A DNA stretch of 64,000 bases from Escherichia phage WPEC2: the sequence record PV691511.1. One strand, given 5' to 3'. Below the pieces are notes generated by a model, which was not told the DNA's origin, did no database searches, and saw nothing but the letters and a program-made list of their open reading frames with translations. The position numbers and the translations under genes were made by a program. Shown piece after piece: positions 42,272 through 43,344 of this stretch (position 1 is its first letter; each line of letters opens with the position of its first letter).

Positions 42272-42668
42272 TATGTGTGGATATCTTTCAGAAAGTTATT
42301 TCAAAGTGACGCATGAGGATTTAGAAAAAGCACGATTGAAACTGACAGCTATTATTGAATACTCTAATACTGTTGATCACAGATTAAAGACTACTAAAGT
42401 ATCTGTTCCTTGTTGGTTAGGTTTACGGCATAAAATAATGTCTCAACATGACCATGTTGTTCGAGAGATGCATGGTTGGTGTTGGTTTCACGATGTGGCT
42501 CTGCATTTTGGTTATATTACAGAAGAAGAGCATAGATTCTGTGAACTAACATATCGTATTCCAACCCTTCACGATTTAGATTTGTGGAAGAAAGCAAACG
42601 AGATTTTTCTTACAGAAAGTGATTGGCGTAAAGTTATGGCTTGTCTTGAATGGAGGGGTAATGAGTAA
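42255..42668 (+). CDS. hypothetical His/Trp-rich protein
   Basis: 137 aa; HDHVVREMHGWCWFHD segment; overlaps neighbours. Confidence 0.55.
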   Translation: MKEVINMCGYLSESYFKVTHEDLEKARLKLTAIIEYSNTVDHRLKTTKVSVPCWLGLRHKIMSQHDHVVREMHGWCWFHDVALHFGYITEEEHRFCELTYRIPTLHDLDLWKKANEIFLTESDWRKVMACLEWRGNE

Positions 42669-43344
42669 AACAGTTTTGTCTATGTTTGACGGATCTGGGA
42701 TCATGGTGTTACGTTATGCCGAAGCAGGTCACAAGTGTTTTTGTGTAAACGCTGATGAAGGGGATCACGGTAAATACGAGGTTAGGATGGAGCACCCAAA
42801 CATAACCTATGTGAATGCCTGGATAGATTCTACATTCAACCCTGAAGATCATGGAATACCTAAACCCGATATTATTTTTGGATTTCCACCTTGCACTATG
42901 TTAGCAGGTAGTGGTAGCAAACACGAACGCAGCACAGAGGAATTGGATGAAGCTTTAGCTAATATTCGTGTAGTGGAAGCTTTGGGTAACAAATATAATG
43001 TTCCTTGGATGATTGAGAACCCAGTAGGTAAACTTTCAACCTTATGGCGTAAACCCGATTTTTACTTTGATCCTTATGAGTATGGTGGGTATTTGTTTGA
43101 AGAGGAAGGAAGCTTTCATCCTAAAATGCCTACCCGTGATGGGTATACAAAGAAAACTTGTATTTGGCACGGCAATGGTTTTGTTCAACCAGTGAAGAAA
43201 CCAGTAGATCATATAGGCTGCTTCTGGGGTTGGAAAAGCTTAGGTGGAGCTAGTGCAAAAACAAAACAACTTAGATCACTAACCGCACGTGGTTTTGCTC
43301 GTGCAGTGTTTTTGTCTAACAATCTTCTAGATAAGGAGAAATAA
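42661..43344 (+). CDS. minimal C5-methyltransferase-like protein lacking a target-recognition domain
   Basis: ATG at 42661 after GGAGGGG SD (overlaps upstream TAA); motif I LSMFDGSG, motif IV GFPPCTMLAGSG, motif VI ENPVG; only about 227 aa. Confidence 0.6.
   Translation: MSKTVLSMFDGSGIMVLRYAEAGHKCFCVNADEGDHGKYEVRMEHPNITYVNAWIDSTFNPEDHGIPKPDIIFGFPPCTMLAGSGSKHERSTEELDEALANIRVVEALGNKYNVPWMIENPVGKLSTLWRKPDFYFDPYEYGGYLFEEEGSFHPKMPTRDGYTKKTCIWHGNGFVQPVKKPVDHIGCFWGWKSLGGASAKTKQLRSLTARGFARAVFLSNNLLDKEK

Follow-up and report, generated by a model that had tools for sequence, protein, structure and literature searches.

The stretch of Escherichia phage WPEC2 considered here (sequence record PV691511.1; 64,000 nucleotides, the whole of which is called the window below) carries on its + strand a short gene that very likely encodes an active, stand-alone (orphan) DNA cytosine-5 methyltransferase (C5-MTase) of a phAPEC8-like coliphage, dependent on S-adenosylmethionine (AdoMet). 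The gene and its probable ribosome-binding site are as follows.

42661 to 43344, + strand: methyltransferase coding sequence (CDS), 227 aa, stop codon included (open reading frame [ORF] list, raw sequence, and family matches)
42652 to 42658, + strand: Shine-Dalgarno-like GGAGGGG, within the 3' end of the upstream ORF (read from the sequence)

The ORF list and the raw sequence agree on a start at ATG 42661 and a stop at 43342 to 43344. A longer, GTG-initiated form from 42619 also stands in the mechanical ORF list; the ATG is taken because relatives in GenBank are annotated from it and the N termini of homologues agree. In phage Mt1B1_P17, the GenBank CDS (positions 9662 to 10345 of the stretch L001) corresponds exactly to 42661 to 43344 of the window. 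Is such a short protein complete? A tblastn search with the 227 residues matched 1,487 phage records; in 1,466 of these the alignment takes in 80% or more of the query. Both termini line up with those of 49 homologues (60 to 99% identity), and the best 150 of the 965 cluster representatives from a HMMER scan are mostly 200 to 260 aa long. Together, the near-full-length copies, the coinciding termini, and the family-wide short length establish that the gene is intact and exclude a fragment of a longer frameshifted gene, which the original prediction, made from the DNA letters alone, had allowed for. That prediction had placed here an ORF of about 227 aa carrying LSMFDGSG, GFPPCTMLAGSG, and ENPVG in canonical order, as the sequence confirms. 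It had also singled out the shortness as unusual: the protein is indeed compact, but its length is the norm of a large, annotated phage family rather than an oddity.

Membership in that family is equally plain. PHROGs assigns the protein to phrog_757, "DNA methyltransferase," with an E value of 1.8e-84 (residues 1 to 225 against profile positions 13 to 223 of 247), a full-length match that makes it an ordinary member with no difference noted. The 4.5 kb surrounding the gene are 100% identical to Escherichia phages WPEC1, WPEC4, and WPEC6 and 99.6 to 99.8% identical to Mt1B1_P17, ESCO13, Schickermooser, phAPEC8_ev052, and other Phapecoctavirus (Stephanstirmvirinae) myophages; judged by this sequence, the window is that of a Phapecoctavirus, a phAPEC8-like coliphage. 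In these relatives GenBank calls the product "DNA methyltransferase," "DNA methylase," "putative site-specific DNA methylase," "Dcm," or sometimes "hypothetical protein," and many of the 1,487 matching records are labeled DNA or cytosine methyltransferase or Dcm. The phages matched by tblastn include Drexlerviridae (Webervirus and Hanrivervirus among them), Dhillonvirus, Vequintavirinae, Krischvirus, Stephanstirmvirinae, and others. In a large protein collection 870 clusters matched, and the HMMER scan, which was exhaustive, gave its 965 representatives at 50% identity. The gene is thus a known and ordinary kind of orphan phage methyltransferase, and its family is large and already annotated. 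Some members are longer, at 276 to 348 aa; one of them (348 aa) has a C-terminal HNH_2 domain, and no extra DNA-binding domain was recognizable in these longer members. The compact methyltransferase fold also occurs as a domain in giant proteins of uncultured Caudovirales (BFVD A0A6J5SE15, 1397 aa, and A0A6J5NPY6, 1126 aa), at 24 to 27% identity and template modeling (TM) scores of ~0.6 to 0.7; one of these is annotated as helicase/UvrB-like.

Fold and catalytic motifs

An AlphaFold2 model computed from the 49-sequence alignment reached a predicted local distance difference test (pLDDT) score of 90.1 and a predicted TM (pTM) score of 0.89. The single weaker stretch covers residues 81 to 90, directly after the Pro-Cys motif, which we take to be the catalytic loop. 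The order of elements is that of the large domain of a C5-MTase, running from beta-1 with motif I through beta-2, beta-3, and beta-4 with FPPC to the helix at residues 92 to 111 and beta-5 with ENP. After beta-5 the model continues with a short strand (134 to 136), a conserved 30-residue excursion (DPYEYGGY...HPKMP), the YTKKTCIW strand (166 to 171), and two terminal helices (199 to 205 and 210 to 219) that carry TKQLRSLTARGFARAV. In the fold search the top ranks held C5-MTases only, and DNA C5-MTases outscored DNMT2; with Foldseek against the PDB, DNMT3A and DNMT3B came first with E values of ~2e-7, and among viral models the best matches were other phage "cytosine methylases" of 150 to 250 aa. 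The original call of a C5-methyltransferase-like protein is therefore borne out; it could have been overturned by a Rossmann family outside the methyltransferases that fitted better, and none did. The likeness to the catalytic domains of DNMT3A and DNMT3B (PDB 6u8p and 2qrv) comes with only 13 to 19% identity and implies no homology beyond a shared superfamily; unlike the window protein, these enzymes have a motif X and work as a DNMT3L-assisted tetramer.

The motifs that can be placed on the protein are the following.

42685 to 42699, + strand: motif I, FDGSG, residues 9 to 13, the AdoMet-binding glycine loop after beta-1 (invariant D10 to G13; aligned to M.HaeIII, M.HhaI, and DNMT2)
42883 to 42897, + strand: motif IV, FPPCT, residues 75 to 79, with the predicted nucleophile Cys78 at 42892 to 42894 (aligned to the PC of HaeIII, HhaI, and DNMT2)
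43015 to 43029, + strand: motif VI, ENPVG, residues 119 to 123, with Glu119 as the counterpart of the ENV glutamate (conservation; correspondence to E128 of the phage K42 homologue)
43144 to 43167, + strand: motif VIII-like YTKKTCIW, residues 162 to 169, strand beta-7 (conservation; model strand 166 to 171)
43261 to 43311, + strand: C-terminal conserved block TKQLRSLTARGFARAVF, residues 201 to 217, motif IX-like (RxLTxRExAR) (conservation; by inspection only)

How much weight can such short motifs bear? LSMFDGSG occupies residues 6 to 13, and the FxGxG loop of HaeIII, HhaI, and DNMT2 aligns to it; GFPPCTMLAGSG, at residues 74 to 85, contains Cys78. Across the 49 close homologues D10, G11, S12, G13, F75, P76, C78, T79, E119, N120, P121, and V122 are invariant, and in a diverse set of 82 members reaching down to ~31% identity C78, G85, E119, P121, P138, Y162, W169, and P177 still are. 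This invariance in both sets places the motifs beyond chance. ENPVG falls at the end of the model strand 116 to 120 and pairs with the ENV of HhaI in an hhalign trace that is statistically nonsignificant. K164 and T166 are at least 90% conserved among the 82 members; Lys164 and Lys165 appear to occupy the place of the canonical QxRxR, an equivalence that comes from a published superposition of a homologue on DNMT3A. Toward the C terminus, the block TKxLRSLTxxG is invariant (T201, K202, L204, R205, S206, T208, G211, and A215 in the 49 homologues), with R205, S206, T208, G211, and A215 at least 90% conserved in the 82. To the eye, the highly conserved RSLTARGFARAV resembles motif IX, and the protein ends 10 residues after it.

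Comparison by sequence alone gives a thinner picture, and several of its results count against the assignment. (i) Pfam PF00145 scored 11.6 bits, below its cutoff of 22, with an E value of 0.18 and a match confined to residues 4 to 92. (ii) NCBIfam gave no match for the 227-aa protein. (iii) Two family profiles, A1 and A2, run against the sequences in the PDB found no significant C5-MTase, returning either nothing or an E value of ~0.06. (iv) An hhalign comparison with a 120-sequence HhaI-family profile was not significant (E = 0.07), this profile being shallow because the HhaI homologue search gave only relatives above 70% identity. (v) No motif X (GNxV) is recognizable in the protein after the motif IX-like block. 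Other comparisons reached the border of significance or passed it. Models in PADLOC for type II methyltransferases and the DruM cytosine methylase match residues 5 to 113 (E = 1e-4 to 3e-3). With phmmer, HaeIII matched marginally (E = 0.08) and over motifs I to IV only, the same span as that of hhalign against M.HhaI alone (E = 0.004 to 0.08). At an E value of 0.01 or below, PF00145 recognizes 1 of the 49 close and 2 of the 82 diverse family members. As these sequence-only links to solved C5-MTases are marginal, the classification rests on the fold, the order of the motifs, and a characterized homologue.

The subthreshold Pfam and NCBIfam results and the missing motif X are also what might be expected of an inactive relic, a pseudoenzyme, or a piece of a longer gene. 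We consider this extremely improbable, given catalytic residues that are invariant over ~31 to 99% identity, a length and termini kept in more than 1,400 phage genomes, and a homologue that is active.

A characterized relative and the proposed mechanism

That homologue comes from phage K42, whose genome is 95.4% identical to that of KarlJaspers/Bas06 (10.1101/2023.08.16.553469). Four mutants of K42 that escaped the retron Ec86 all disrupted or affected a 711-bp "Dcm-like" gene, and expression of K42 Dcm was toxic solely in cells carrying the retron (10.1101/2023.08.16.553469). Mass spectrometry coupled to liquid chromatography (LC-MS) detected 5-methylcytosine (5mC) on the retron's multicopy single-stranded DNA (msDNA) with wild-type K42 Dcm and none with the C82A/E128A/K175A/K176A variant; a plasmid expressing the enzyme by itself gave activity in vivo, and 34 of 35 Ec86-sensitive phages encode a Dcm of this kind (10.1101/2023.08.16.553469). 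The preprint was later cited under the title [quoted passage not shown] In KarlJaspers, whose enzyme is nearly identical to that of K42, the gene is bas06_0055 (QXV82308.1), which is exactly 711 bp long and carries C82, E128, K175, and K176; its product aligns with the window protein end to end by BLASTP at 50% identity (E = 1e-71). The activity of K42 Dcm and this gene match together give the family a proven DNA C5-methylating member. Its four mutated residues correspond to C78, E119, K164, and K165 of the window protein, and the two enzymes share family and architecture, are of similar size (236 versus 227 aa), and are both encoded by orphan phage genes. They differ in phage lineage, a Hanrivervirus siphovirus versus a Phapecoctavirus myovirus here, as well as in gene neighborhood and in the loop that stands in for a target-recognition domain (TRD).

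Not every C5-methyltransferase fold acts on DNA. The protein might instead methylate tRNA in the manner of DNMT2 or, like PDB 8yf3, be a C5-carboxymethyltransferase using carboxy-S-adenosylmethionine (Cx-SAM), and an RNA or nucleotide substrate had been suggested at the outset. The homologue's 5mC on DNA by LC-MS and the higher fold scores of DNA enzymes relative to DNMT2 disfavor this, and the ORFs scanned between 39490 and 45657 include no match to a Cx-SAM synthase (CmoA-like). Such a substrate or cofactor is accordingly given very little chance.

The activity, specificity, and role that we infer for the WPEC2 orthologue, read as a DNA C5-MTase, are these. By analogy with M.HhaI and DNMT3, a Rossmann-like core would bind AdoMet via FDGSG of motif I, and the target cytosine would be flipped out of the helix. 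Cys78 of FPPCT would then attack C6 while Glu119 of ENPVG protonates N3, Lys164 and Lys165 of YTKKT would stand in for the motif VIII arginines, and the methyl group would move to C5. As in the DNMT3 enzymes with their small TRD, the DNA would probably be read by the catalytic loop along with the short conserved loops 137 to 165 and 172 to 198, which would yield a short motif. The enzyme may methylate phage DNA after replication, and host DNA as well; this methylation would shield a subset of sites from restriction and would also produce the signal that the retron Ec86 (Eco1) defense senses.

Target recognition and specificity

The segment in question lies between beta-7 and the C-terminal helices.

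43174 to 43254, + strand: TRD-equivalent loop, residues 172 to 198, 27 aa (model and alignment)

In M.HhaI, the TRD comprises ~100 residues, and DNMT3 retains a TRD loop of ~50 aa. Compared with M.HhaI (whose sequence was checked against PDB 10mh) and M.HaeIII, with their TRD of ~100 aa and their QxRxR, the window protein has ~27 aa and a Lys-Lys pair, and it lacks both GNxV and a cognate restriction enzyme. At ~470 aa, E. coli Dcm is over twice as long. With Dcm/M.EcoRII the protein shares an annotation name, "Dcm," and possibly a target, through the CCTGG motif of Ec86 msDNA; it is not an orthologue, has no NCBIfam match, and lacks the full TRD that Dcm has. The early claim that there is no TRD at all thus holds insofar as only residues 172 to 198 occupy its position, and it loses its singularity in that the trait is family-wide: among the 82 members the segment measures 20 to 40 aa (median, 28) and belongs to the less conserved regions. 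Within the close subfamily, loops 137 to 171 and 172 to 198 are strongly conserved (0.75 to 0.81, with 0.81 for 172 to 198). The loop reads HIGCFWGW here versus EDDKDNPGW in KarlJaspers. This difference means that specificity is not transferable from the characterized enzyme, which weakens the reading by homology on this point. A loop conserved in the close subfamily yet unlike that of KarlJaspers also suggests that the recognition motif could differ between clades.

Does so small a segment read a sequence at all? An enzyme wanting a TRD might be sequence nonspecific or nearly so, a 5mC counterpart of the adenine enzyme M.EcoGII that blankets the phage genome. The TRD cut down to ~27 residues and the best structural matches to the low-specificity, small-TRD DNMT3 enzymes are in keeping with this idea, as is the literature: the searchable literature held no recognition sequence or methylome determined for any family member. 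We nevertheless regard nonspecific methylation as improbable. The conservation of the two loops in the close subfamily is what one expects of a specific DNA-reading surface. E. coli K-12 MG1655 is mcrBC+ and mcrA+, and phapecoctaviruses with an identical protein were isolated on it, which is hard to square with purine-5mC sites being densely methylated. Blanket methylation also fits poorly with the reported exceptional susceptibility of Vequintavirinae and their relatives to restriction-modification systems and with the reported great sensitivity of most Drexlerviridae (PMC8594841). Homologues were confirmed in one Vequintavirus (JohannBauhin) and two Drexlerviridae, with none in T1. The same sensitivity of Vequintavirinae and relatives tells against part of the role proposed above, as any protective value must be narrow (PMC8594841).

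What, then, might the recognition sequence be? For an enzyme that reads a defined motif, CCWGG is the leading candidate, put forward tentatively. E. coli K-12 MG1655 is dcm+. It was also the strain of the retron experiments, in which alteration of CCTGG in the msDNA stem abolished Ec86 defense (10.1101/2023.08.16.553469). The requirement for CCTGG does not fix the motif of the phage enzyme. Two further points count against CCWGG as evidence from that study: the motif was assumed by analogy with the host Dcm, and control msDNA was poorly methylated even though MG1655 was used (10.1101/2023.08.16.553469).

Site avoidance was examined as another source of evidence on specificity by comparing observed with Markov-expected counts of CCWGG, CCSGG, CCGG, and GGCC in nine phages, six with the methyltransferase and three lacking it. 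No consistent pattern for CCWGG or CCSGG emerged across these nine, which lends the proposed target no support. CCWGG is depleted in the methyltransferase-positive Krischvirus 011D4 (17 observed versus 56 expected in the stretch examined) and in the methyltransferase-negative T7 (2 versus 56), so the presence of the gene does not predict relaxed avoidance; counts were close to expectation in KarlJaspers, which is positive (125 versus 121), and 83 versus 100 in T1, which is negative. Being inconsistent across phages, site avoidance was rejected as evidence on specificity. As observations in their own right, CCSGG (CCCGG plus CCGGG) does not occur in positions 1 to 64000 of the window, where ~8.5 sites are expected under a maximal-order Markov model, and the window is depleted in GGCC (25 versus 62) and CCGG (28 versus 55); KarlJaspers has 2 CCSGG sites versus 11.7 expected. 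The depletion of CCSGG and GGCC may reflect avoidance of enteric restriction enzymes that cut CCNGG/CCSGG and GGCC.

A bolder proposal, which we rate as unlikely though worth stating, is that phrog_757 represents a true minimal C5-MTase without a TRD. Its members would rely on two short loops plus dimerization, or would prefer hairpin, single-stranded, or replication-fork DNA, the stem-loop of the retron msDNA being an example; they would recognize a 2- to 3-base or structure-dependent motif other than CCWGG, and subfamilies, among them the Phapecoctavirus clade with its HIGCFWGW loop, would differ in target. If this were true, no natural 5mC writer would be smaller, and the mode of recognition would be unusual.

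Neighboring genes and significance

Many small genes of early type follow one another on the + strand here; the methyltransferase gene is one of them, and its translation is coupled to that of both its neighbors.

42273 to 42668, + strand: upstream 131-aa ORF rich in His, Cys, and Trp, phrog_16551, function not assigned (8-nt overlap with the methyltransferase start)
43344 to 43997, + strand: downstream 217-aa ORF, phrog_8514, function not assigned (its ATG overlaps the stop codon of the methyltransferase by one base)

Of the 131 aa of the upstream product, 10 are His, 5 are Cys, and 6 are Trp; this product had been noted before as a His-rich neighbor, correctly in composition, with a start at 42255 that moves to ATG 42273. 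Such tight overlaps (8 nt and 1 nt) with two genes lacking an assigned function make it conceivable that the methyltransferase is only a catalytic subunit and that a separately encoded partner, for example one of these two neighbors, targets it. DNMT3L stimulates DNMT3A in a comparable way. The partner search, an all-against-all BLASTP of flanking ORFs within 3 to 4 kb on either side, covered six phage lineages: the window phage, KarlJaspers, JohannBauhin (Vequintavirus), 011D4 (Krischvirus), VAC4 (Webervirus), and JL1 (Dhillonvirus). The methyltransferase proved to be the only gene common to all six loci. Neither phrog_16551 nor phrog_8514 was found beside it in the other lineages of this comparison, where different neighbors, often helicase, primase, or polymerase genes, take their place. 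With no neighbor conserved across six lineages, a genetically linked targeting partner, which the original prediction had entertained, is unlikely, and the activity of the K42 homologue expressed alone speaks against dependence on any partner. That explanation is very improbable. No restriction-enzyme neighbor was identifiable beside two bacterial copies of the gene (Bdellovibrio and Serratia), which lie in prophage-like regions; the gene thus occurs in a phage or prophage context without a cognate restriction enzyme, as an orphan.

Pfam, PHROG, and PADLOC suggested no function for the other neighbors, apart from two. At 41330 to 42271 (+ strand), a 313-aa protein with DUF7277 (E = 1.7e-13) and DUF7275 (E = 7.5e-76), phrog_2141, heads the translationally coupled string that includes the methyltransferase. 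At 44526 to 45341 (+ strand), ~1.2 kb or two ORFs downstream of it, lies a Sir2-family protein (PF02146, E = 1.9e-22; phrog_2162); T5 also has Sir2-annotated genes (26447 to 27265 and 27588 to 28094 of its stretch, L014). Farther upstream, three tandem + strand ORFs (40255 to 40452, 40697 to 40957, and 40967 to 41239) encode proteins of 65, 86, and 90 aa with acidic, coiled-coil-like bodies and similar tails (...NWHPSSLSC, ...GVWHSSSC, and ...GVWISSSSMC), which by their sequences resemble a small set of paralogues.

Collinearity between the window and Mt1B1_P17 begins only at 37537, positions 37537 to 53500 matching 4538 to 20501 of L001 at 99.6%. Mt1B1_P17 encodes a second "DNA methyltransferase" of 170 aa ~7 kb upstream; nothing in the window matches it, so these close relatives differ in the genes they carry or in how those are arranged. 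Of the five comparison phages that carry the compact C5 enzyme, four show, in the stretches examined, a further gene annotated as an N6-adenine or second methyltransferase (L004, 376 to 1701; L011, 19516 to 20001; L003, 33019 to 33720; and L010, 43669 to 44397), and the fifth, Krischvirus 011D4, has two adjacent CDSs labeled DNA methylase (L009, 47997 to 48754). Orphan methyltransferases seem to come in pairs in these phage genomes.

Overall, dozens of phapecoctavirus genomes already have an annotation for the same protein, and its family has one characterized member. The recognition sequence and the way in which DNA is read with no full TRD merit a simple methylome experiment but do not make the locus surprising. 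A 5mC writer of 227 aa could serve as a small epigenetic tool when its specificity has been worked out. Compact orphan methyltransferases of this sort are often labeled "hypothetical" by automated pipelines because the Pfam and NCBIfam models miss them. As the family is a known trigger of Ec86 (Eco1), E. coli that bear the retron, B strains for example, may sense therapeutic phAPEC8-like phages that carry the gene.

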